A stretch of 64,000 bases of DNA from Escherichia coli. GTDB lineage: Bacteria; Pseudomonadota; Gammaproteobacteria; Enterobacterales; Enterobacteriaceae. The position numbers were made by a program, and so were the translations under genes. Each line of letters opens with the position of its first letter. Position 1 is the stretch's first letter. The stretch is taken from assembly GCF_009931435.1 (NCBI RefSeq), contig NZ_CP043414.1; one strand, given 5' to 3'. Of the stretch, positions 1 to 39,285 are shown in pieces. Below the pieces are notes generated by a model. The model saw nothing but the letters and a program-made list of their open reading frames with translations, made no database searches and had not been told where the DNA came from.

Positions 1-406
1 GGCGCGCCAGCATTCGCAGTACCAGCATCAGCTGTCGGCGTCGTTGATGCCGCCGCACCGCTTTGATCGCCGCTGGTTGATTGCGCCGCTGCACCACCGC
101 TGCTGAGGCTATCGATCTGCAACAGGATCTGCTTTTGCCGCTCCACGACCTGATTCAGTTGATACTGATTTTCCTGAATCTGACCACGCAGGGAATCAAT
201 ATCGGATTGATTATCAGAGAGTTGTTGCTGGAGTTGGGTTAAAAGCTGGCTGTGAGCATTAGAAATACGCTCAAGTTGAGTGACGCGGTCTTCGACCGAG
301 CCTGAGCCGACACTACTGATTGGTGCCTGAGCAAAAGCGGCCCAGGGGGCCGCTATACCAACCAGTAACGACAGACTCAATAGTTGATGTCTGAAGTTAC
401 TGCTCA
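1..406 (-). CDS. cpoB: CpoB (YbgF) periplasmic cell-division coordinator; 5' part only, truncated by window edge
   Basis: Reverse-strand translation from the ATG at 404-406 gives MSSNFRHQLLSLSLLVGIAAPWAAFAQAP... with a signal peptide and Gln-rich coiled coil; sits directly downstream of pal as in the tol-pal operon. Confidence 0.85.
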
Positions 407-416
407 TGCAATTCTC

Positions 417-962
<546 letters not shown>

Positions 963-9272: not shown

Positions 9273-10295
9273 ATGAGCGATTTTTGCAAGTTAGTTTTTC
9301 TATTGCCGGGTACGCTGAGCGCCTCGCTTGATTACAATGAGGTTGCTGCCATGGGTCTTGATAATATAGGTTCTGTTGTCAATCGCTTCTCTGGTTGGCC
9401 ATCAAATGATCCTCTAAAAACAGATAACGAATCAATGACATCACCCGTGACTGTGCAGGTAATAAAGTTGATTGCCGCCATCCTTGACCCACATCGGATA
9501 GTCGTTGGTATCGATACACTTTATACAACGCAGCGCAAAACATTTACCTCAGAGGGTCAACAACTCATTGAATCAGCATTGAAAACACTTAATGTGATGA
9601 ATTTAAATAACCTGGAAACAGATCGTGATGAGGAGGGTAACTATCTGGCTTTTGGATATAACGTTGACACTCCTGACAGAATAACCGTTTCTGCTTATAA
9701 TGAAAAAAAACCTTTCTGTTATGGCCAATGTCTTTTAATACAGGATGAAGAACCAGATTTATTTAACCTGGTAAAAATTAAAACCTTTGAAGCCAGGCAT
9801 AATTATGTTTCTAAATTGATGAGCGATCCGGAATTTATGTTTAAATTCAGTTATAGCGCCCAACAAAATAGATTAGAACCTCATCTTCTGGTTCCCACTT
9901 ATTTCCCTCTGAAAACAAACCAACCGGTTACGCTAGAGGATGTACTGATACTTTATCGTTTCTTTAAAATGAATGGCGATTTTAATATATTAACATCAGA
10001 TGAATACATGAGTATCATGACACCTCTGATGAAGTGTGAGCGTAGTATCCACGACCATAACAGGTATGTGACGGGCAAAGATGCTCTTCTTCTGGACAAT
10101 CCTCCGTCTGGTAACCAGATATATTTCCATATTTCCCCTGACGAATCAGCAACACTTGTCCTTTATTTTTCAGACAATAACCTTGAATCCTTCGTCTTTG
10201 AAAATGATATTCCGAGCCAGTATCGACATTTCAAAATGTTTACCAATTTAGCACTAGTTATTGATCAGTTAACCGACGCCAATCAAATACTTTAA
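9273..10295 (+). CDS. Hypothetical protein (340 aa), AT-rich, no recognisable domain
   Basis: Long uninterrupted ORF in a strongly AT-rich stretch unlike the flanking core genes; alternative start at 9351 (MGLDNIG...). Confidence 0.5.
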   Translation: MSDFCKLVFLLPGTLSASLDYNEVAAMGLDNIGSVVNRFSGWPSNDPLKTDNESMTSPVTVQVIKLIAAILDPHRIVVGIDTLYTTQRKTFTSEGQQLIESALKTLNVMNLNNLETDRDEEGNYLAFGYNVDTPDRITVSAYNEKKPFCYGQCLLIQDEEPDLFNLVKIKTFEARHNYVSKLMSDPEFMFKFSYSAQQNRLEPHLLVPTYFPLKTNQPVTLEDVLILYRFFKMNGDFNILTSDEYMSIMTPLMKCERSIHDHNRYVTGKDALLLDNPPSGNQIYFHISPDESATLVLYFSDNNLESFVFENDIPSQYRHFKMFTNLALVIDQLTDANQIL

Positions 10296-10374
10296 TTTTC
10301 TATACAGCCCTGTGTAAAATATTGCTAAACAGTGCCCGGGGTTGATTTTTATTCCTCACGGTGATATTTAAATC

Positions 10375-10797
10375 ATGACACCATCTCAGCTCTCTTTTAA
10401 TACTCTTCCTGTCAATGCAACATGCACTTCAGAGATAACAGTAAACACACAAAAATTCTCTGACATCCTCTACTCAGTGGGGTATTCCCTAAAGGATCTG
10501 GCTTATCTGAGCAGATGTCTGGCATCATTACACCCGACACTCGCCAAAAACATTTATGAAACGGAAAATCTCAGCGATCAAAAATTACTTTATATAGATT
10601 GCCGTAGTACAAATGAAATCAAGATAAATATCTTTTTGGGTCAAAAAAGAGAAGAATTAATCGAAATTAGTTCTGATACAGTCATTTTTTCGATACTGTC
10701 TTCATTGATTGACTCAGTTATTTCTGAACATCGACATCAAATCCCCGTTAACGATTCAAATAATTCTGAACTATTTTATGAGGATTATACTGATTAA
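10375..10797 (+). CDS. Hypothetical protein (140 aa), AT-rich, acidic C-terminus
   Basis: ORF immediately downstream of and co-directional with the 340-aa ORF; no recognisable motif. Confidence 0.45.
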   Translation: MTPSQLSFNTLPVNATCTSEITVNTQKFSDILYSVGYSLKDLAYLSRCLASLHPTLAKNIYETENLSDQKLLYIDCRSTNEIKINIFLGQKREELIEISSDTVIFSILSSLIDSVISEHRHQIPVNDSNNSELFYEDYTD

Positions 10798-11341
10798 ATC
10801 CACTCTGTACGAACCTGTCCTGCATTTATGCCAGAAGTATTAGAATCTTTGCTTAACGTTACTCATACAGTAGCACCTTCATGTGCCTCTCTTTTTTACG
10901 AAAAATCAAAAGAGCTAACAAAAGTCATTCTTCGCATGAATCATTAATTATTTGTTATTTTCAACATTATTTTTACATTAAGCATATATGAATTGCAGTG
11001 AAATTCGACTTAACTTTTATGAAATGCATTTACTCATGGCTAAAGCCACGTCACAAAAATGCAAATTAGAAGTTGATCACAATTATCTCAATCCATCAAA
11101 TCAAGTTAATTTTAAAAATTTAACATCCATGACATTAGTTGACATAACACGCTGAATTAAAATGAGAATTTAAAAAAACACTTTAAACAATCATTTCCCG
11201 AAAGACATTTTGAAAATAGATCAATTGCAACATTACGGTCAGATAAAGACACTCCTCTGATATTAAACCTGTGCCGTTATGAACGGCCATAAATACGACG
11301 TGTGTAACTTAATTTACTCTCTGTCTTACAAAGGATTACCC

Positions 11342-11791
11342 ATGAAGAAAGCAACACTTGTGATTGGCGTTATTGGCGCGGACTGCCATGCAGTAGGCAA
11401 TAAAGTTCTGGACCGCGTTTTTAGCAACCATGACTTCAGAGTCATTAATCTGGGCGTAATGGTCAGCCAGGACGAATATATTGATGCTGCCATTGAAACT
11501 GGCGCTGACGCGATTGTCGTCTCCTCTATCTATGGGCATGGCGATATCGATTGTCTGGGCATGCGCGAACGCTGCATCGAGCGTGGGCTGGGTAACATCC
11601 TGCTCTATGTGGGCGGTAACCTGGTGGTCGGAAAACATGACTTCGCTGACGTGGAAACCAAGTTCAAAGAGATGGGATTTGATCGCGTCTTTTCCCCAAG
11701 TCATGACTTAGAAGATGTTTGTCAGCTGATGGCCCACGATATCAACCAACGTCATGACGTTGATACTCGCATTCTTGAAGAGGCAATCTGA
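11342..11791 (+). CDS. glmS: Glutamate mutase sigma (S) subunit, B12-binding (methylaspartate mutase small subunit)
   Basis: [24 protein letters not shown]... carries the DxHxxG cobalamin-binding motif and aligns by eye with clostridial GlmS/MutS; start at 11342 chosen over the track's 11279 because of the RBS. Confidence 0.85.
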
Positions 11792-13179
11792 TGCAAATCG
11801 TCTCTGTCGATATTGGATCGACGTGGACCAAAGCAGCCCTCTTCACCCGGGAGGGGGACGCGTTAACGTTGGTTAACCACGTTCTGACCCCAACCACCAC
11901 CCATCATCTGGCGAAGGGGTTTTTCTCCAGCCTGGACCAGGTGTTAAACGTAGATGATGCCCTCCCCCTGTTAAACAGTGGTGAGGTTGCATTGAAGTAT
12001 TCCTCCTCTGCCAAAGGTGGGCTGGCGGTTGCCGCAATGGGAATAGTGCCTTCTATCACTCTGGAAACCGCGAAAGTAACCGCTCACTCTGCGGGTGCTA
12101 AAATTGCGCAATATTACGCCTACAAGCTGAACCGCCGTGATATCCAGGCACTGGAAGAAACGCAGCCCGATATTCTCTTGTTCACCGGCGGCACCGACGG
12201 CGGAGAAGAAAGCTACGGACTGAATAACGCCCGTGTGCTGGCAGAATCCAAACTCGACTGCGCCATTATTTATGCCGGAAACCGGGATATTCAGGACAAG
12301 GTGCAGGAGATCCTCGGGCATAAAGACCTGACCATCGTCGACAACGTTCTGCCCGATCTTGACCATCCGAACCCTTTAGCTGCACGCCAGGCTATCTGCG
12401 ACATATTCCTTAAACGCATCGTTAAAGGGAAAGGGCTGGATGTCATTGTTGATAAAACAGGCGAAGAACCAATGCCGACACCATGGACGGTCTTTGAACT
12501 GGTTAAGGCAATCAGTAACGTCGATCACAGCTGGAAAGAGTTCATGCTGATCGACATGGGCGGCGCAACCACCGATGTCTATTCCGCCTGTGCCAACACG
12601 CTCTCGCCCGACACTGTTTTACATGGCGTACCGGAACCCTTCGTAAAACGGACGGTGGAAGGCGATCTGGGAATGCGCGTCTCGGCAATGGTGGTTGGTG
12701 AAAGTGCGAAAGAGTTAGTCAGTGTGAATTTTGCTCAGCAACCCGCACAGTTGGACGCTTTTTATCATTACCTCCGTCATCTAGTCGCTCATCCCGACTA
12801 CTTACCCGCGAATGCAGATGAAAAATATTTCGATACCGTCCTGGCCGGACTGTGTGTGGGTTATGCCACCGAAAGACATGCGGGCACCAAAAAAGAGGTC
12901 TGCACCTGCGTCGGCAATGTCGATTTACAGATGGGACGTGACCTGACAACCGTGCGTAAAGTCGTGGGTTCCGGCGGATGGCTCTCGCGTGCCAGTCAGT
13001 TCGATATGCATCACTGGTTGAAATACCGCGAGTTAAACGACGACGGTAAACGCATTCTCTTACCGACCGAATTTGAATATTACCGCGATTCCCGGGGGCT
13101 ATTACCACTGCTGGCAAACGTCGCCAGAGTCGATCCGCTGGCCGCCGCGCGCACCAGTATTCAATGCTTAACCCTATAA
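11791..13179 (+). CDS. glmL: Glutamate mutase accessory protein GlmL/MutL (putative reactivating chaperone)
   Basis: 462-aa ORF sitting between the S and E subunit genes, as in clostridial mutS-mutL-mutE operons. Confidence 0.7.
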   Translation: MQIVSVDIGSTWTKAALFTREGDALTLVNHVLTPTTTHHLAKGFFSSLDQVLNVDDALPLLNSGEVALKYSSSAKGGLAVAAMGIVPSITLETAKVTAHSAGAKIAQYYAYKLNRRDIQALEETQPDILLFTGGTDGGEESYGLNNARVLAESKLDCAIIYAGNRDIQDKVQEILGHKDLTIVDNVLPDLDHPNPLAARQAICDIFLKRIVKGKGLDVIVDKTGEEPMPTPWTVFELVKAISNVDHSWKEFMLIDMGGATTDVYSACANTLSPDTVLHGVPEPFVKRTVEGDLGMRVSAMVVGESAKELVSVNFAQQPAQLDAFYHYLRHLVAHPDYLPANADEKYFDTVLAGLCVGYATERHAGTKKEVCTCVGNVDLQMGRDLTTVRKVVGSGGWLSRASQFDMHHWLKYRELNDDGKRILLPTEFEYYRDSRGLLPLLANVARVDPLAAARTSIQCLTL

Positions 13180-13197: not shown

Positions 13198-14643
13198 ATG
13201 GAACTTCGAAATAAGAAATTAACCCATGACGAATTCATGACCGAGCGGCAACAGGTATTGAAAACCTGGGAAACCGGCAAGGATGTTGAAAACTTTGAAG
13301 ATGGCGTTAAATACCAACAAACCATTCCTGAGCATAAACGCTTCTCTCTTGCCCTGCTGAAAGCAGACAAGGAAGGTAAAACCCTTAGCCAACCGCGCGC
13401 AGGCGTGGCGCTGATGGACGAACACATCGAACTACTGAAAACACTACAAGAAGAGTGCGATCTGCTGCCGAGCACTATCGATGCATATACCCGTCTGAAT
13501 CGGTACGAAGAAGCTGCTGTAGGGATTAAAAAATCCATCGAAGCCGGAACCTCTAAACTGAACGGTTTACCGGTAGTTAACCACGGCGTCGCAGCTTGCC
13601 GTCGCCTCACCGAAACTCTGCAAAAACCGCTACAGATCCGCCACGGCACGCCAGATGCGCGTCTGCTGGCTGAAATCTCGATGGCCAGCGGCTTTACCAG
13701 TTATGAAGGCGGCGGCATTTCCTACAATATTCCGTATGCCAAGCGCGTAACGCTGGAAAAATCGATCCGCGACTGGCAGTACTGCGATCGTTTAATGGGG
13801 ATGTACGAAGAACACGGGATCCGCATCAACCGCGAACCGTTTGGCCCACTAACGGGTACGCTGATCCCGCCGTTTATCTCGCACTCTATCGCAATAATCG
13901 AAGGCTTGCTGGCACTGGAACAGGGTGTGAAGTCTATCACCGTTGGTTATGGTCAGGTCGGTAGCCTGACGCAGGATGTTGCGGCGATCCAGTCTCTGCG
14001 GGAACTTGCACACGAATATTTTCAGAGCTATGGCTATACCGACTACGAATTAAGTACCGTGTTTCACCAGTGGATGGGAGGCTTTCCGGAGGACGAATCG
14101 AAAGCGTTCGCCATTATCTCCTGGGGTGCTGCAGTCGCGGGGATGTCTGGTGCTACCAAAGTCATCACCAAAAGTCCGCACGAAGCCTGGGGCATCCCGA
14201 CTGCTGCTGCCAACATTCAGGGGCTAAAAGCCTCCCGCCAGATGCTCAACATGGTCAACGAGCAGAAATTCCCGCCGTGCCCGGCGGTTGAACTAGAAAT
14301 TGAACTGATTAAGAGCGAGGTTCGCGCTGTACTGAACAAAGTGTTCGAACTGGGTAATGGTGATATTGCGCGCGGTACGGTGCTGGCATTTGAAGCGGGC
14401 GTACTGGATGTGCCGTTTGCACCAGCCGCCTGCAACGCGGGCAAAATTCTTCCGGTCCGTGACAACACCGGCGCGATACGCGTACTGGAAGCCGGAGCCG
14501 TTCCATTGCCAAAAGATATTCTCGACCTCCACCACGATTACGTTGCGGAACGCGCGCGCTTTGAAGGACGCCAACCGACATTCCAGATGGTTGTAGATGA
14601 CATCAATGCTGTATCCCACAGTAAATTAATAGGAAGACCATAA
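13198..14643 (+). CDS. glmE: Glutamate mutase epsilon (E) catalytic subunit
   Basis: 481 aa; MELRNKK...QPRAGVALMDEHIELL...PSTIDAYTR...GGGISYNIPYAK matches recalled Clostridium GlmE along its length. Confidence 0.9.
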   Translation: MELRNKKLTHDEFMTERQQVLKTWETGKDVENFEDGVKYQQTIPEHKRFSLALLKADKEGKTLSQPRAGVALMDEHIELLKTLQEECDLLPSTIDAYTRLNRYEEAAVGIKKSIEAGTSKLNGLPVVNHGVAACRRLTETLQKPLQIRHGTPDARLLAEISMASGFTSYEGGGISYNIPYAKRVTLEKSIRDWQYCDRLMGMYEEHGIRINREPFGPLTGTLIPPFISHSIAIIEGLLALEQGVKSITVGYGQVGSLTQDVAAIQSLRELAHEYFQSYGYTDYELSTVFHQWMGGFPEDESKAFAIISWGAAVAGMSGATKVITKSPHEAWGIPTAAANIQGLKASRQMLNMVNEQKFPPCPAVELEIELIKSEVRAVLNKVFELGNGDIARGTVLAFEAGVLDVPFAPAACNAGKILPVRDNTGAIRVLEAGAVPLPKDILDLHHDYVAERARFEGRQPTFQMVVDDINAVSHSKLIGRP

Positions 14644-15884
14644 TGAAAATAAAACAGGCCCTTTTTACCGCTGGCTACTCCTCATTCTATTTCGATGATC
14701 AGCAGGCGATAAAAAACGGAGCGGGTCACGACGGCTTTTTCTACACCGGAGAGCCGGTAACACAGGGGTTTAACGCCGTACGTCAGGCCGGGGAGTGCGT
14801 TTCGGTTCAGTTGATTCTGGAAAACGGTGCGGTCGCCGTAGGTGACTGTGCTGCCGTACAGTATTCCGGGGCAGGCGGTCGCGATCCACTGTTCCTCGCA
14901 GAGCACTTTATTCCGTTCCTCAACGACCATATCAAGCCATTACTGGTAGGCCGCGATGTGGATGCTTTCCTGCCGAATGCCCGTTTCTTCGACAAATTGC
15001 GTATTGACGGCAACTTGCTGCATACCGCCGTACGTTACGGATTATCACAGGCGCTGCTTGATGCTACCGCGCTGGCAACCGGCCGTCTGAAAACTGAAGT
15101 GGTCTGTGATGAATGGCAGTTGCCACGCGTGGCGGAATCCATTCCATTATTTGGTCAGAGCGGCGACGATCGATATATCGCCGTCGATAAGATGATCCTT
15201 AAGGGCATCGACGTGCTGCCCCATGCGCTGATTAATAACGTCGAAGAGAAACTGGGCTTTAAAGGTGAAAAACTGCGCGAATATGTCCGCTGGTTGTCAG
15301 ATCGCATTCTGAGCAAGCGCACCAGCGCACGCTACCACCCTACCCTGCACATCGATGTATACGGCACTATCGGTCTGATCTTCGATATGGATCCGCTTCG
15401 CTGTGCGCAATACATCGCCAGTCTGGAAAAAGAGGCGCAAGGCCTGCCGCTCTACATTGAGGGGCCGGTCGATGCCGGTAACAAGCCCGATCAAATCCGC
15501 CTGCTGACCGCGATTACCAAAGAGCTGACGCGCCTCGGTTCCGGCGTGAAAATCGTGGCCGATGAATGGTGTAACACCTACCAGGATATTGTTGATTTCA
15601 CTGATGCCGCCAGTTGCCACATGGTGCAAATCAAAACCCCGGATCTGGGCAGTATTCACAACATCGTCGATGCAGTTCTTTATTGCAACAGCCACAGCAT
15701 GGAAGCGTACCAGGGCGGCACCTGCAATGAAACTGATGTCAGTGCCCGCACCTGTGTCCACGTCGCCCTTGCTGCTCGCCCCATGCGTATGCTGGTAAAA
15801 CCAGGGATGGGCTTTGACGAAGGCCTCGATATCGTCTTCAACGAAATGAATCGTACTATCGCGCTGTTGCAGGCTAAGGATTAA
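14643..15884 (+). CDS. mal: 3-Methylaspartate ammonia-lyase (methylaspartase)
   Basis: 413-aa enolase-superfamily ORF (MKIKQALFTAGYSSFYFDDQ...), same length as clostridial MAL; start overlaps the glmE stop. Confidence 0.85.
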   Translation: MKIKQALFTAGYSSFYFDDQQAIKNGAGHDGFFYTGEPVTQGFNAVRQAGECVSVQLILENGAVAVGDCAAVQYSGAGGRDPLFLAEHFIPFLNDHIKPLLVGRDVDAFLPNARFFDKLRIDGNLLHTAVRYGLSQALLDATALATGRLKTEVVCDEWQLPRVAESIPLFGQSGDDRYIAVDKMILKGIDVLPHALINNVEEKLGFKGEKLREYVRWLSDRILSKRTSARYHPTLHIDVYGTIGLIFDMDPLRCAQYIASLEKEAQGLPLYIEGPVDAGNKPDQIRLLTAITKELTRLGSGVKIVADEWCNTYQDIVDFTDAASCHMVQIKTPDLGSIHNIVDAVLYCNSHSMEAYQGGTCNETDVSARTCVHVALAARPMRMLVKPGMGFDEGLDIVFNEMNRTIALLQAKD

Positions 15885-15887
15885 CAA

Positions 15888-17258
15888 ATGGCTCGTTCTT
15901 TTAAAGTCTTATCGCCAACGGCAATCCTCGGGTATGGATTCCCGGAAGAGAGCTTCCGCAAAGCGATGGCAGAATCGCCCGATCTGATCGCCGTTGATGC
16001 AGGCTCTTCCGATCCTGGCCCCCACTACCTCGGGGCGGGCAAACCGTTTACCGATCGCGCAGGGGTCAAGCGCGATCTGCGCTATATGATCACCGCAGGC
16101 GTGCAAAATAATATACCGGTGGTGATCGGAACGGCCGGCGGTTCTGGTGCCGCTCCACACCTGGAGTGGTGCCGAGAAATAATTCATGAGATTGCCCGGG
16201 AAGAGCACCTCGCGTTCTCGATGGCGCTGATCCCGGCAGACGTTGACAAAGCCATCGTCCACCAGGCGCTGGATAACGGCAAAATCACAGCGCTGGATTT
16301 TGTCCCGCCGTTAACCCACGACGCGATTGACGAAAGTACGTATATCGTCGCGCAAATGGGCATCGAACCCTTCCAGCAGGCGCTGAAAGAAGGCGCGCAA
16401 GTGGTGCTGGGCGGGCGCGCTTACGACCCGGCCTGCTTTGCTGCGCTACCGATCATGCAAGGCTTTGATGAAGGTCTGGCGCTGCATTGTGGGAAAATCC
16501 TTGAATGCGCGGCAATCGCCGCAACGCCCGGCTCAGGCTCTGACTGTGCGATGGGCATCATTGATGACAACGGCTTTACGCTGAAGACATTTAATCCGAA
16601 GCGTAAATTTACCGAAACGTCAGCGGCTGCACACACACTGTATGAGAAATCCGATCCCTACTTCCTGCCAGGACCTGGCGGCGTGTTGAACCTGAAAGGC
16701 TGCACATTTAAAGCGGTCAATGACGGCGAAGTGTACGTCAGCGGTTCTAAGCATGAAGAAACGCCGTATGCCCTGAAACTGGAAGGTGCGCGGCGGGTGG
16801 GCTTCCGCTGTCTGACCATCGCAGGAACGCGCGACCCGATCATGATCGCCGGGATCGATAAAATCATCGATGAAGTCAAAACCAGCGTTTCGCGTAACCT
16901 GTCGCTCGACGATGACAGCATTCGCATCAATTTCCACCTGTACGGCAAAAACGGGGTGATGGGCGACCATGAACCGATGCAAACTGCCGGGCATGAGCTG
17001 GGGATTGTCCTTGATGTAGTTGCACCGACCCAGGATATTGCCAATAGCGTTTGCTCGCTGGTGCGCTCTACCATGCTGCACTACGGCTATGAAAACCGCA
17101 TCGCTACCGCAGGCAACCTGGCGTTCCCGTTCTCCCCTTCTGATATCCAGGGCGGGCCGGTATACGAATTTTCCATATATCACCTGATTGAAGCCAACGA
17201 CGCTCTGCGTTTTGATTTCCATATTGAACAGGTGACGCCAGAAGGAGTTCAGGCATGA
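15888..17258 (+). CDS. DUF1446 (AtuA-like) family protein, function unknown
   Basis: 456-aa ORF tightly linked downstream of mal; sequence resembles the acyclic-terpene-utilisation AtuA-like family as recalled. Confidence 0.6.
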   Translation: MARSFKVLSPTAILGYGFPEESFRKAMAESPDLIAVDAGSSDPGPHYLGAGKPFTDRAGVKRDLRYMITAGVQNNIPVVIGTAGGSGAAPHLEWCREIIHEIAREEHLAFSMALIPADVDKAIVHQALDNGKITALDFVPPLTHDAIDESTYIVAQMGIEPFQQALKEGAQVVLGGRAYDPACFAALPIMQGFDEGLALHCGKILECAAIAATPGSGSDCAMGIIDDNGFTLKTFNPKRKFTETSAAAHTLYEKSDPYFLPGPGGVLNLKGCTFKAVNDGEVYVSGSKHEETPYALKLEGARRVGFRCLTIAGTRDPIMIAGIDKIIDEVKTSVSRNLSLDDDSIRINFHLYGKNGVMGDHEPMQTAGHELGIVLDVVAPTQDIANSVCSLVRSTMLHYGYENRIATAGNLAFPFSPSDIQGGPVYEFSIYHLIEANDALRFDFHIEQVTPEGVQA

Positions 17259-17572
17259 AACAGTCAATTGTCTCACTGGCGCAAGTCATTCGTTCGAAAA
17301 ATGCCGGACCTTACGAACTGGTTTTAGATATTTTATTTAAAACGAAAGAAAACTATGAGCGAGTAAAATCATCAGGGCAATTAACCCCAGAACTGATTGC
17401 GCGCTTATATCATGTTGAACCTGACTTTATTCATCGTATTGTCTGGTTTGATCCTTCTAACGCAGTAAAAATTGTCATGCCACGAGATATTATCTCCGGG
17501 AATGTAGGTGACAATGATGTCTATGGCGCACAGCAACATGCACCTTTATTAAATATGAGTTTCGATTTGTAA
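17255..17572 (+). CDS. DUF4387-family small protein (partner of DUF1446 proteins)
   Basis: 105-aa ORF overlapping the previous stop by 4 nt (translational coupling). Confidence 0.55.
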   Translation: MKQSIVSLAQVIRSKNAGPYELVLDILFKTKENYERVKSSGQLTPELIARLYHVEPDFIHRIVWFDPSNAVKIVMPRDIISGNVGDNDVYGAQQHAPLLNMSFDL

Positions 17573-17732
17573 AAATCCGAACACTTTTAGCCAACTGACA
17601 TCCCGTCACTTATTGCAGCTCAACACTTCAGCTATTTGTAAGGTTGTTATAGCAGGTAGATGCCTGAATCTCTATTCAGGCATCCACTTCTCCTGATTCT
17701 GATTTATCGCCGTGCACCTGATGGAGGAAAAA

Positions 17733-19013
17733 ATGAAGAAAATAAGTTTAACCACGATGATTCTTTTGGCGCTGGTACTTGGAATGATTATCGGCGTAGT
17801 GCTCAATAACACTGCTTCACCGGAAACAGCAAAACTCTATGCGCAAGAAATATCGATATTCACGACGATTTTCTTACGACTGATAAAAATGATTATCGCT
17901 CCGTTAGTGGTCTCTACCCTGGTGGTAGGTATTGCTAAAATGGGCGATGCCAAAGCCCTTGGTCGTATTTTTTCTAAAACACTCTTTTTATTTATTTGCG
18001 CCTCATTGCTGTCAATTGCCTTAGGCTTGATAACGGTAAATTTCTTCATGCCAGGCACAGGAATTAATTTTGTTGCACACGGTGCCGAAACCACCGGAGT
18101 GGTCGCGTCAGAACCCTTTACACTAAAAGTATTTATTTCGCATGCTTTCCCCACCAGCATTGTCGATGCCATGGCGCACAATGAAATTTTGCAAATCGTG
18201 GTGTTCTCAATTTTCCTCGGCTGTAGCCTGACGGCGATTGGTGAGAAAGGCAGCGCCATCGTTCACGCCTTAGATTCGCTGGCACATGCCATGTTAAAGC
18301 TCACTGGCTACGTCATGCTCTTCGCTCCCCTGACCGTATTCGCCGCTATTTCAGCATTGATTGCTGAACGAGGACTGGCAGTTATGGTGAGCGCCGGGAT
18401 CTTTATGGGTGAATTTTATTTCACCATGTTATTACTTTGGGTGCTGCTTATCGGTCTGGCCATCGTTTATGTCGGCCCCTGCATCAGACGCCTGACCCGC
18501 GCCCTTTCAGAACCCGCCCTGCTGGCATTTACCACATCCAGTTCTGAAGCTGCTTTTCCGGGAACGCTTGAAAAACTGGAGCAATTTGGCGTTTCCCCCA
18601 AAATTGCCAGCTTTGTCTTACCCATTGGCTACTCATTTAATCTCGTTGGATCAATGGCCTACTGCTCCTTCGCCACAGTTTTCATCGCCCAGGCCTGCAA
18701 TATCCATTTATCCATCGGTGAGCAAATCACCATGCTGTTGATCCTGATGTTGACCTCGAAAGGAATGGCTGGCGTACCACGCGCCTCAATGGTGGTTATC
18801 GCCGCCACGCTCAACCAGTTCAATATTCCGGAAGCGGGGCTGATCTTGCTGATGGGCGTTGATCCGTTCCTTGATATGGGGCGTTCCGCGACAAACGTCA
18901 TGAGCAACGCAATGGGCGCTGCGATGGTGAGTCGGTGGGAAGGCGAACATTTCGGCGAGGGCTGTCGGGGTAAAGCATTAAAACCCAATGAATCGAACGT
19001 TGCTCTGCCCTGA
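17733..19013 (+). CDS. Dicarboxylate/amino acid:cation symporter (DAACS, GltP-like); putative glutamate or C4/C5-dicarboxylate uptake
   Basis: About 426-aa polytopic membrane protein with DAACS-like sequence; GGAGG upstream of the ATG at 17733 (track ORF starts at 17712). Confidence 0.75.
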   Translation: MKKISLTTMILLALVLGMIIGVVLNNTASPETAKLYAQEISIFTTIFLRLIKMIIAPLVVSTLVVGIAKMGDAKALGRIFSKTLFLFICASLLSIALGLITVNFFMPGTGINFVAHGAETTGVVASEPFTLKVFISHAFPTSIVDAMAHNEILQIVVFSIFLGCSLTAIGEKGSAIVHALDSLAHAMLKLTGYVMLFAPLTVFAAISALIAERGLAVMVSAGIFMGEFYFTMLLLWVLLIGLAIVYVGPCIRRLTRALSEPALLAFTTSSSEAAFPGTLEKLEQFGVSPKIASFVLPIGYSFNLVGSMAYCSFATVFIAQACNIHLSIGEQITMLLILMLTSKGMAGVPRASMVVIAATLNQFNIPEAGLILLMGVDPFLDMGRSATNVMSNAMGAAMVSRWEGEHFGEGCRGKALKPNESNVALP

Positions 19014-19120: not shown

Positions 19121-20773
19121 ATGTCCAAACCATTTATCTGGCAAGAACCGTTTCTACAAAATAAAGACGGTACAGAATATACATTAATTAGCGATCAACA
19201 TATTACAGTAACGGAATTAGACGGCGAAGAAGTAATAAAAATCGCTCCTGAAGCATTAACGCTGCTTGCCCGGCAGGCATTTTATGAAGCCTCTTTTTTC
19301 TTACGTTCCGCTCATTTGCAACAGGTCGCCAGCATTCTTAACGATCCGCAGGCCAGCAGTAATGATAAATACGTTGCGTTGCAGTTATTACGTAATGCTG
19401 AAGTCTCAGCAAAAGGGGTATTACCCAACTGTCAGGATACCGGCACCGCAACTATTGTTGCCAGTAAAGGGCAACAGATATGGACGGGAGGTAACGACGC
19501 TGAAGCCTTAAGCAAAGGCATTTACAGTACTTTCCAGGAAAATAATCTGCGCTTTTCACAAAATGCGCCGCTGGATATGTATACCGAAGTCAATACGCAA
19601 ACCAATCTTCCGGCGCAGATTGATATCAGCGCTGTCGCTGGTAATGAGTACCATTTTCTCTGTGTTAATAAAGGGGGCGGCTCCGCCAATAAAGCCGCAC
19701 TTTATCAGGAAACCAAATCCTTATTGCAACCAGAAAAACTGACCGCATTTTTAATCGACAAAATGAAATCGTTGGGCACGGCCGCCTGCCCGCCCTACCA
19801 CATCGCCTTTGTCGTCGGAGGGCTTTCAGCCGATCAAACCTTAAAAGTTGCCAAGCTGGCCTCTACGAAATATTACGACAATTTGCCCACCAGCGGAAAC
19901 GAGCAGGGACAAGCATTCCGTGATATTGAGCTGGAAAAAGCGTTGCTCGAGGCCAGTCAGCAATTTGGTATTGGTGCGCAATTTGGGGGTAAATATTTCG
20001 CTCATGATATTCGCGTCATTCGTCTGCCGCGTCACGGTGGCTCTTGCCCGATAGCTATGGCGCTCTCCTGTTCTGCCGATCGCAATATCAAAGCAAAAAT
20101 TAACAAGCATGGTATCTGGCTGGAAAAACTCGAACACAATCCGGGGCAATATATTCCAGCCTCACTGCGGGAAGAAAATCACGCGCAACATGTACAGCTG
20201 GATCTAAACCGTCCGTTGCGTGACGTGATGCAGGATCTCGCCAGATTACCGGTAGGTACCCGCGTGTCGTTAAGTGGTCCCATCGTAGTGGCGCGCGATA
20301 TCGCCCACGCAAAAATAAAAGCGCGGCTGGATAGCGGCGAATCGATGCCGGATTACCTGAAGCATCATATTGTCTATTACGCTGGCCCGGCGAAAACACC
20401 GGAGAACATGGCCTGCGGTTCACTGGGTCCAACCACGGGCGGTCGAATGGACGGTTATGTCGAAACCTTCCAGGCGGCTGGCGGCAGTCTGGTAATGTTA
20501 TCGAAAGGTAACCGCAGCCAGCAGGTCACCGATGCCTGTCACAAACATGCAGGCTTCAATCTGGGAAGTATTGGCGGTGCAGCTGCGTTACTGGCGCAAG
20601 AATATGTCAAAAGTCTGCGTTGCCTGGAATACCCGGAGCTGGGTATGGAGGCGGTGTGGATGATGGAAGTGGAAAATCTGCCCGCATTCATCCTGGTTGA
20701 TGATAAAGGCAATAATTTCTTTAGCCAGTTTGAGCAGCAACACCGCTGCGCCAGTTGCCCTGCGGGACATTAA
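19121..20773 (+). CDS. fumD: Class I (Fe-S) fumarate hydratase family; probable mesaconase/fumarase
   Basis: 550-aa FumA/FumB-like ORF (..[10 protein letters not shown]..); its position in a glutamate mutase/methylaspartase cluster suggests mesaconate hydratase. Confidence 0.8.
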
Positions 20774-20782
20774 GGAAAATGA

Positions 20783-21385
20783 ATGGAAGCGCGAATTTCA
20801 ACTGAACGGCATGTGCAGCGCCAACAGAAATTGAAGGAACAGGTCGATACGCGCGTCGCGGCGGCGATAGAGAAAAAAGGGATCTTGATTGTTTTCACCG
20901 GCAACGGCAAAGGGAAATCCACTGCCGCGTTTGGTACTGTGACGCGCGCGGTGGGTCATGGCAAAACGGTGGGGGTTGCGCAGTACATCAAGGGGCAATG
21001 GGACAACGGCGAATACAACCTTCTCCAGCCGCTGGGGGTTGAGTTTCATATTATGGGAACCGGTTTTACCTGGGAGACTCAGAACCGGCAAGCGGATATC
21101 GACGCGGCGAAAGAGGTCTGGTCGGAAAGCAAACGGATGCTGGCTGACAAGCGTTACGACTTAGTGGTGCTTGATGAGCTGACCTATATGCTGGCTTACC
21201 ATTATCTGGACACCGAAGAAGTGATCACTTCTCTGCAAAACCGCCCGGCACAACAAAGTGTCATTGTCACCGGACGCAGTTGCCACAGTCAGATATTAAA
21301 AATGGCGGATACGGTCAGCGAAATCCGCCCCGTCAAACATGCTTTTGATAACGGCATTCAGGCGCAGCCGGGTATCGACTGGTAA
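20783..21385 (+). CDS. Cob(I)yrinic acid a,c-diamide / corrinoid adenosyltransferase (CobA/BtuR/CobO family)
   Basis: 200-aa ORF with P-loop GNGKGKSTAAFG; would supply adenosylcobalamin for glutamate mutase. Confidence 0.8.
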   Translation: MEARISTERHVQRQQKLKEQVDTRVAAAIEKKGILIVFTGNGKGKSTAAFGTVTRAVGHGKTVGVAQYIKGQWDNGEYNLLQPLGVEFHIMGTGFTWETQNRQADIDAAKEVWSESKRMLADKRYDLVVLDELTYMLAYHYLDTEEVITSLQNRPAQQSVIVTGRSCHSQILKMADTVSEIRPVKHAFDNGIQAQPGIDW

Positions 21386-21418
21386 TAACTGCGCCTGGCA
21401 TCCAGCCAGGCGCAGGTT

Positions 21419-22324
21419 TTACATCTCCTGCGGTACGACCGATTTCGCCAGCAACCATTCACGAAATTGCTGCAAGTGCGGCGAGTCAGACTTCTCTTCC
21501 TGCCACGTCATAATAAAACGATTACCGGTACGAATAGGCACATCACAGGGAATCACCATATCGCCACTATCCAAATCATGTTGAATAGCGAACCGTGGTA
21601 ACAGCGCCACGCCGAGATTAGAGCGCACGGCGGCAATCAGCATTGAAAGCAAATCGAAACGTGGTCCGTTATTGACCAGCGGACTGCTAACGCCAGATAA
21701 AGCAAACCACTCTTCCCAGCCAGTAATACGGGTGCTTTGATGCAGAAGTGGTAACTCAGTAAGCAGTTCTGCCACTGACAGTTTTTGATCGGACATTGCA
21801 AGCAAACTGCCGCTGCATACCGGCAAAATCTCCTCTTCAAAGAGATATTCTACTTCCGCCCAGGGCGCGCAAAAATTTTCGCGCATAATGACAGCATCGT
21901 ACTCCCGATTAAGAAAATCGCCGTTATTAGCTAAAGAATGAATATTAACAATAATATCGGGATGTAACTTTGTGAATTCATGTAAATTTGGGATTAACCA
22001 GTGGGTACTAAACGTAGGATTAACGGCAAGTTCAATAACCTGAACCGTAGGCTGCCAGGTCATAATCGTATTGGTATCGCGCTCCAATTTATTTAATGTT
22101 TCTTTTACTATCCCCAGGTAATACTTCCCTGCATCATTAAGAAAAATGCGTTTTTTAGAGTGTGAAAATAACGGAGTATGTAAAAATTCCTCCAACGCAC
22201 TTACTTGTCTGAATACTGCACTTTGGGTTAACGCTAACTCCTCTGCCGCTCTGGTATAACTTTCATGACGTGCGACGACCTCAAAAGTCACCAGCAGCTC
22301 CGTTTTAGGTATTTTTCCTCGCAT
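21419..22324 (-). CDS. LysR-family transcriptional regulator
   Basis: 301 aa; N-terminal HTH (LLVTFEVVARHESYTRAAEELALTQSAVFRQVSALE) plus substrate-binding domain. Confidence 0.85.
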   Translation of the reverse strand: MRGKIPKTELLVTFEVVARHESYTRAAEELALTQSAVFRQVSALEEFLHTPLFSHSKKRIFLNDAGKYYLGIVKETLNKLERDTNTIMTWQPTVQVIELAVNPTFSTHWLIPNLHEFTKLHPDIIVNIHSLANNGDFLNREYDAVIMRENFCAPWAEVEYLFEEEILPVCSGSLLAMSDQKLSVAELLTELPLLHQSTRITGWEEWFALSGVSSPLVNNGPRFDLLSMLIAAVRSNLGVALLPRFAIQHDLDSGDMVIPCDVPIRTGNRFIMTWQEEKSDSPHLQQFREWLLAKSVVPQEM

Positions 22325-39002: not shown

Positions 39003-39285
39003 TTCCTGCATTTCTTTTGTAGGCCGGATAACGCATTCACGCTGCATCCGGCGCTGTTTGCCTGATGCGACGCTTGCGCGTCTTATCAGGCCTACGATTC
39101 CTGCATTTCTTTTGTAGGCCGGATAACGCATTCACGCCGCATCCGGCCCTGGTTGCCTGATGCGACGCTTGCGCGTCTTATCAAGCCTACGATTTCTGCA
39201 TTTCTTTTGTAGGCCGGATAAGGCGTTCACGCCGCATCCGGCACTGGTTGCCTGATGCGACGCTTGTGCGTCTTATCAGGCCTGG
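39003..39285. repeat. Cluster of three tandem BIME/REP units in the sdhB-sucA intergenic region
   Basis: Three near-identical ~95-bp units, each with two REP palindromes (taggccggataa...gcatccggc and gcctgatgcgacgcttgcgcgtcttatcaggcctac). Confidence 0.85.

Follow-up and report, generated by a model that had tools for sequence, protein, structure and literature searches.

A DUF1446/DUF4387 gene pair in an Escherichia coli glutamate-fermentation operon is an ortholog of the citramalate lyase CmlAB

This study deals with two adjacent genes, here called cmlA and cmlB, in a stretch of 64,000 nucleotides of Escherichia coli DNA (contig NZ_CP043414.1 of assembly GCF_009931435.1), which we refer to as the window. 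They lie in an operon with the genes of glutamate mutase and methylaspartase, and we discuss their role as the two subunits of a citramalate lyase. A preliminary description of the window, made from the sequence alone, had placed a 456-residue DUF1446 protein and a 105-residue DUF4387 protein, overlapping by 4 nt, between the methylaspartase gene (mal) and a transporter gene. The list of open reading frames (ORFs), the sequence, and Pfam confirm the two frames, and the gene order confirms their position. The overlap consists of the letters ATGA at positions 17255-17258, in which the cmlA stop codon and the cmlB start codon are interlocked, and a GAAGGAG Shine-Dalgarno motif lies 7 nt before the cmlB ATG. 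Through this overlap, cmlB is translationally coupled to cmlA. On the other side, a gap of 3 nt separates the stop codon of mal (15884) from the start of cmlA.

Both are genuine conserved genes and not chance ORFs, because 6757 of 8000 scored candidates are homologs at E ≤ 1e-5 and because the synteny is kept in 78 of the 80 species genomes surveyed below. The gene calls are unchanged in the annotation that the NCBI Prokaryotic Genome Annotation Pipeline (PGAP) gives for E. coli 2020CK-00188, where the pair is 99.7% identical. Of the 5426 complete genomes available for the species, 1125 (~21%) carry the pair.

A profile search gave significant matches for both proteins. CmlA matches the Pfam family AtuA (PF07287; E 7.4e-19, 68 bits) over residues 63-393, a partial match covering model positions 61-396 of 437, and CmlB matches DUF4387 (PF14330; E 2.9e-39); no NCBIfam model matches either protein. 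A sequence search of the PDB, on the other hand, leads to a named enzyme. CmlA retrieves chain A of entries 9ERQ and 9EVF along its full length (residues 1-456, E 3.2e-292), labeled 'Acyclic terpene utilization AtuA family protein | Citramalate lyase, subunit A (cmlA)', whereas CmlB retrieves chain B of 9ERQ (E 5.2e-57), labeled 'DUF4387 domain-containing protein | Citramalate lyase, subunit B (cmlB)'. Entry 9EVF, released on 2025-10-08, is titled 'Citramalate lyase - ADP - pyruvate complex', and 9ERQ, released on 2025-10-22, 'Citramalate lyase - AMPPNP - citramalate complex'. The crystallized CmlA is 100% identical to the product of the same-cluster gene of Klebsiella michiganensis DSM 25444 (locus L011).

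The alignments with the crystallized chains are gapless, with 420 of 456 positions identical for CmlA (92.1%) and 88 of 104 for CmlB (84.6%). An alignment of 32 sequences, with identities down to 60%, has 151 invariant columns, and all 36 CmlA differences lie outside them. The predicted fold of the window proteins is the CmlAB fold, and a fold search of the PDB returned no whole-fold match for either subunit beyond the CmlAB entries. In all features of membership that can be tested, the window pair agrees with the crystallized enzyme, and it is a CmlAB ortholog. Neither protein shows homology to CitD, CitE, or CitF by Pfam, NCBIfam, PDB sequence, or fold search. The observation in the preliminary description that the cluster holds no recognizable citramalate lyase also stands, as the annotated counterpart of the 64-kb window contains neither a gene for a CitDEF-type lyase nor, over its whole length, citC, citX, or citG.

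CmlA and CmlB act as one enzyme, because their orthologs share the same crystal entries and because fungi carry AtuA-DUF4387 fusions. In these fungal proteins (e.g., P0258, P0230, and P0227) both Pfam domains occur in one chain, with DUF4387 at the C-terminus of proteins of 530-735 residues. Bacterial CmlA and the fungal fusions have a set of polar residues that is invariant throughout, namely Q156, E160, R177, D180, H200, K203, E206, C207, H249, Y252, E253, and N410. Two glycine-rich loops, D37-x-G-S-x-D42 and G81-x-x-G-G-x-G87, are likewise conserved from bacteria to fungi; the first of them and the G84-G85-x-G87 part of the second are nearly invariant. Residues 40-52 form the only long low-confidence stretch of the apo CmlA model, which would fit a loop that becomes ordered upon ligand binding.

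We then consider the genomic company that the pair keeps. A scan of one genome per species gave at least 573 relatives, and the best 80 loci (59-99% identity) were surveyed by tblastn with the window proteins, so that the survey describes the CmlA subfamily (the closest relatives) and not the whole AtuA family. In 78 of the 80 loci mal lies directly upstream of cmlA, the exceptions being a metagenome-assembled genome (MAG) of Accumulibacter, with no glm or mal gene within 10 kb, and a contig cut short at 3.9 kb. Directly downstream, cmlB follows in 78 of 80 as well, and both exceptions stand at contig ends. The glutamate mutase genes are present in most loci (glmE in 73, glmL in 66, and glmS in 63 of the 80), with shortfalls that are largely due to contig-end cuts. 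The hosts comprise Enterobacterales, Betaproteobacteria, Riflebacteria, Aminicenantes/Acidobacteriota, Lentisphaerae, Spirochaetes (including Treponema denticola), Oligoflexales, and an Erysipelotrichia MAG, and even proteins of 60-70% identity in distant phyla keep the mal-cmlA-cmlB context. In four loci that were annotated with Pfam, the gene order is the same, and neither CitE nor CitF is encoded in the vicinity. The pair is thus found with the methylaspartate pathway, and not solely beside unrelated ones.

The enterobacterial cluster was described by Kronen and Berg (2015, PMC4682846), who showed that FumD of E. coli O157:H7 is a mesaconase. In that paper the DUF1446 gene downstream of mal had no known function and was noted as often mis-annotated as methylaspartase. 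Extracts of E. coli O157:H7 grown on citrate, acetate, or propionate had no detectable citramalate lyase activity, conditions under which the cluster is expressed could not be found, and the fate of citramalate in this organism was called unclear (PMC4682846). The suggestion of the preliminary description that the pair supplies the citramalate-cleaving step thus met a real gap, since Kronen and Berg had neither lyase activity nor expressing conditions. This suggestion has been borne out, both by the crystallization of close orthologs as citramalate lyase subunits and by in vivo data on cmlAB. The latter come from a preprint of January 2026 (bioRxiv 10.64898/2026.01.16.699985), in which an evolved acetyl-coenzyme A (acetyl-CoA) auxotroph grows on mesaconate only when it carries a plasmid with cmlAB of Raoultella planticola. 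Curing the plasmid abolishes the mesaconate-dependent growth, and isotope labeling follows mesaconate carbon into acetyl-CoA. The two-subunit construct was a gift of the Berg laboratory, and the preprint mentions neither adenosine triphosphate (ATP) nor acetyl phosphate. Our literature search on CmlAB and citramalate lyase turned up only Kronen and Berg (2015) and this preprint.

Taken together, the pair is very probably CmlAB, a heteromeric citramalate lyase that is independent of CoA and acyl carriers and performs the last methylaspartate-pathway step of the operon. Along the proposed route, the GltP/DctA-like symporter would import the substrate, and GlmSE, with GlmL and CobO, would convert glutamate to 3-methylaspartate. 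Mal would then yield mesaconate, FumD would turn mesaconate into (S)-citramalate, and CmlAB would split (S)-citramalate into pyruvate and acetate. For the orthologs, both this net reaction and the assembly of an A and a B subunit are established.

The classical lyase needs an acetyl thioester, as cleavage between C2 and C3 of free citramalate would leave an unstabilized acetate carbanion. The ortholog crystals contain citramalate together with AMPPNP, a non-hydrolysable analog of ATP, and pyruvate together with adenosine diphosphate (ADP). Because the substrate is trapped with AMPPNP and the product with ADP, and in view of the two glycine-rich loops conserved as far as fungi, we lean toward a chemical part for ATP in the CmlAB reaction, although the nucleotide could be structural or regulatory instead. 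In the mechanism that we propose, ATP would transiently phosphorylate the C4 carboxylate of citramalate, cleavage between C2 and C3 would then leave a stabilized acetyl-phosphate enolate, and the phosphate would pass back to ADP or be regained by way of acetate kinase. Phosphorylation would in this way take the role that the acetyl thioester has in the classical enzyme. More tentatively, and with rather more doubt than confidence, this scheme can be made explicit and extended: the intermediate would be a transient citramalyl-4-phosphate, acetyl phosphate would be released or the phosphate handed back to ADP, and the whole AtuA + DUF4387 family, including AtuA of Pseudomonas and the fungal fusions, would form a class of lyases that depend on a nucleotide and take acetate off tertiary beta-hydroxy acids with neither CoA nor an acyl carrier.

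Critically regarded, several points weigh against the assignment of the pair as citramalate lyase. The activity rests on the depositors' molecule names, the titles of their entries, and a single preprint in which the enzyme serves as a tool; it is known from orthologs, and CmlB is only 84.6% identical to the crystallized subunit. In addition, extracts of E. coli ATCC 700728 had no citramalate lyase activity, a negative result that is weakened by the lack of conditions expressing the cluster and by an assay without ATP (PMC4682846). If ATP is required, such an assay would miss the activity even with the genes expressed.

The knowledge of the activity through orthologs only also gives room to a first rival explanation, in which the E. 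coli pair is a diverged CmlAB relative that prefers another 2-hydroxy dicarboxylate (malate, methylmalate, or citrate) while citramalate is handled elsewhere. The 16 of 104 positions at which CmlB differs from the crystallized subunit fit this idea, as does the unusual composition of cmlB in Enterobacterales, where the mean G+C content at third codon positions (GC3) is 0.45 against 0.64 for cmlA (36 loci). Nevertheless, we consider it improbable. The 92% identity of CmlA to the crystallized subunit comes with no substitution on a conserved column, the gene order in the window is identical to that in the source-group organism of the crystallized protein, the context is retained by far more distant proteins, and no other citramalate-cleaving activity was found in E. 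coli (PMC4682846).

Still less probable is that the pair gives mesaconate or citramalate another fate, such as isomerization, decarboxylation, or CoA-independent activation. The preliminary description had kept a different fate as an alternative. In its favor, the chemistry of DUF1446/DUF4387 was wholly uncharacterized before 2025, and the bound nucleotide would be compatible with a kinase or ligase, too. However, pyruvate is present in the product complex according to the title of 9EVF, and mesaconate carbon reaches acetyl-CoA in vivo only with cmlAB (bioRxiv 10.64898/2026.01.16.699985), so that no different fate is needed. Finally, an AtuA-type role in acyclic terpene (citronellol/geraniol) catabolism, as implied by the Pfam match and the PGAP product name, is scarcely credible and refuted by genomic context, unless a terpene-derived substrate should be shown: the window contains no atuBCDEFGH, liu, geranyl-CoA carboxylase, or hydratase genes, no atu-type cluster occurs in the homologous loci examined, the pair stands in a glutamate mutase/methylaspartase operon in 78 of 80 genomes, the AtuA match is partial and modest, and AtuA itself never had more than a tentative function.

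Having set out the assignment as CmlAB, we turn to the remaining features of the operon, which are collected in Table 1.

Table 1. Features of the cmlAB operon and its borders, in positions of the window unless a surveyed locus is named
Feature	Position	Strand	Remarks
glmS, methylaspartate (glutamate) mutase B12-binding subunit S	11342..11791	+	PGAP start; longer ORF from 11279
glmL/mutL, glutamate mutase accessory (reactivating) protein	11791..13179	+	
glmE, methylaspartate mutase subunit E	13198..14643	+	
mal, 3-methylaspartate ammonia-lyase	14643..15884	+	
cmlA, citramalate lyase large subunit (Pfam AtuA/DUF1446), by orthology	15888..17258	+	456 aa, ATG start, ORF list
cmlB, citramalate lyase small subunit (DUF4387), by orthology	17255..17572	+	105 aa, ATG start, ORF list
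Stem-loop GATGCCTGAAT-CTCT-ATTCAGGCATC, cmlB-symporter spacer	17659..17684	+	Sequence, RNA fold
GltP/DctA-family dicarboxylate/amino acid:cation symporter	17733..19013	+	PGAP start; 17712 possible
fumD, class I fumarase/mesaconase (mesaconate to (S)-citramalate)	19121..20773	+	NCBIfam NF011921, 1276 bits
cobO, cob(I)yrinic acid a,c-diamide adenosyltransferase (supplies coenzyme B12)	20783..21385	+	
Terminator-like GC-rich hairpin, operon end	21389..21415	+	11 pairs (9 G-C)
LysR-family regulator gene, convergent	21419..22324	-	Its end faces the operon end
P-loop gene, examples in surveyed loci	L002 11712-12665; L003 11677-12618; L005 11698-12654; L006 15269-16201		

Within the 139 nt that separate cmlB from the symporter gene lies a hairpin with a perfect 11-bp stem and a 4-nt loop, which folds with an energy of -19.7 kcal/mol (z -3.7 against shuffles). 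No T-run follows it, which sets it apart from a typical terminator; it may act in the processing or stabilization of the mRNA and so set how strongly the operon genes are expressed relative to one another. In a promoter scan, sigma-70-like sites in the operon were fewer than in shuffled sequence. The LysR-family gene at the operon end is a candidate for its regulator, and the LysR-type gene beside the operon has previously been named a putative LysR-type transcriptional regulator (PMC4682846).

A break in composition runs through the pair. The GC content of cmlB is 38% (GC3 32%), against 56% (GC3 62%) for cmlA and 54% (GC3 61%) for mal. The Enterobacterales share this break, as given above, whereas in 38 loci from other phyla it is absent, with mean GC3 values of 0.66 for cmlB and 0.68 for cmlA. 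Such a break could stem from a separate acquisition of cmlB or from selection on the coupled start region.

In loci from outside the Enterobacterales, cmlB is followed, directly in most cases, by a conserved gene of ~310-318 codons with the Walker A motif GAEGAGKST. This P-loop gene was seen in 34 of the 80 surveyed loci, and only in loci without gltP-like and cobO genes. Its product has no family in Pfam, NCBIfam, or PADLOC beyond matches at the level of the Walker A motif, and it does not resemble CobO. The protein could serve the pathway in an accessory role or as a third component.

Some of the surveyed loci stand apart. In the Accumulibacter MAG (L049/L004, match 10001-11679), cmlA and cmlB are 67% identical to the window pair and lie beside rpoBC and a resistance-nodulation-division (RND) efflux operon. 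As this is the sole clear exception to the synteny, the citramalate may come from another source there. A 7.3-kb contig of a MAG labeled Collinsella sp. (L008) encodes proteins 98-100% identical to those of the E. coli cluster, and a MAG labeled Citrobacter sp. (L007/L013) has one copy of 99% and one of 92% identity; the most likely source of these copies is E. coli contigs that contaminated the bins.

The operon itself is part of a larger accessory island. Histidine utilization (hut) genes adjoin the LysR gene on the minus strand (22595-~30000) and comprise genes for a HAL-family ammonia-lyase and a permease, a HutD-like gene, hutG, hutI, and hutU. Together with the glutamate-fermentation genes, they occupy the island between cydA and the sucABCD side. 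Since glutamate is the end product of the Hut pathway, the island may hold the genes for converting histidine via glutamate to pyruvate and acetate. Between cydA and glmS lie two AT-rich ORFs annotated as hypothetical, at 9273-10295 (340 aa, GC 38%) and 10375-10797 (140 aa, GC 35%), which have no PADLOC matches and probably arrived with the island. Further away, Rfam finds three tandem naRNA4 elements (derived from repetitive extragenic palindromic sequences) at 39022-39282 and the cpoB/ybgF RNA thermometer at 378-516 (minus strand), which are ordinary E. coli features unrelated to the pair.

As to significance, the identity of the enzyme is already known, through the structures of October 2025 and the functional use in the January 2026 preprint. 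The preliminary description, which took the pair to be uncharacterized, was in this respect overtaken, as those structures name close orthologs citramalate lyase. The gap that remains is the lag of genome annotation: PGAP calls the products 'acyclic terpene utilization AtuA family protein' and 'DUF4387 domain-containing protein', and some records name cmlA '3-methylaspartate ammonia-lyase'. The practical value therefore lies in re-annotation, for which the rule 'mal-AtuA-DUF4387' picks out orthologs in at least 10 phylum-level groups. Biologically, the pair answers the question from 2015 of how enterobacteria with the glutamate mutase/methylaspartase/FumD cluster dispose of citramalate. CmlAB completes the operon's route from glutamate to pyruvate, acetate, and ammonia, which, with the adjoining hut genes, may also cover histidine. 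In synthetic metabolism, CmlAB already serves as a CoA-independent module.

Among the known systems, the closest is CmlAB of the Klebsiella/Raoultella group. The gene arrangement is identical, with adjacent coupled genes for proteins of ~456 and ~105 residues; the differences are the host, here E. coli, and the substitutions relative to the crystallized proteins (36 in CmlA and 16 in CmlB). The fungal fusions are more remote relatives. In the two that were compared, the N-terminal ~450 residues share 37-40% identity with CmlA, and the fusions keep the putative active-site residues, but these proteins are eukaryotic and have no glutamate mutase context, adjoining instead genes for a fungal transcription factor and for sugar/amino-acid transporters.

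AtuA of Pseudomonas and Thauera, known from acyclic terpene utilization, has Pfam PF07287 in common with CmlA and is likened to it here by description. It differs in being longer, at ~600 residues (615 in the Thauera protein), and in sitting in an atu operon; with no atu or liu genes nearby, the window pair is not an enzyme of the Atu pathway. Another review gives the step of AtuA to LiuE (PMC4097962), and the result for CmlAB makes the older AtuA assignment worth re-testing.

The comparison that matters most for the pathway is with the CitDEF-type lyase (EC 4.1.3.22), to which the citramalate lyase of Clostridium tetanomorphum belongs as the classical example (Buckel and Bobi 1976, as cited in PMC4682846). 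Both enzymes convert (S)-citramalate to pyruvate and acetate, and both take the same place in the methylaspartate pathway. The window pair is, however, unrelated to the CitDEF type in sequence and fold, and its cluster is without an acyl carrier subunit, prosthetic-group genes, and a ligase; instead, CmlAB binds an adenine nucleotide in the ortholog crystals. CmlAB is thus a non-homologous enzyme with the same function, which replaces the clostridial lyase and its required acyl carrier protein.

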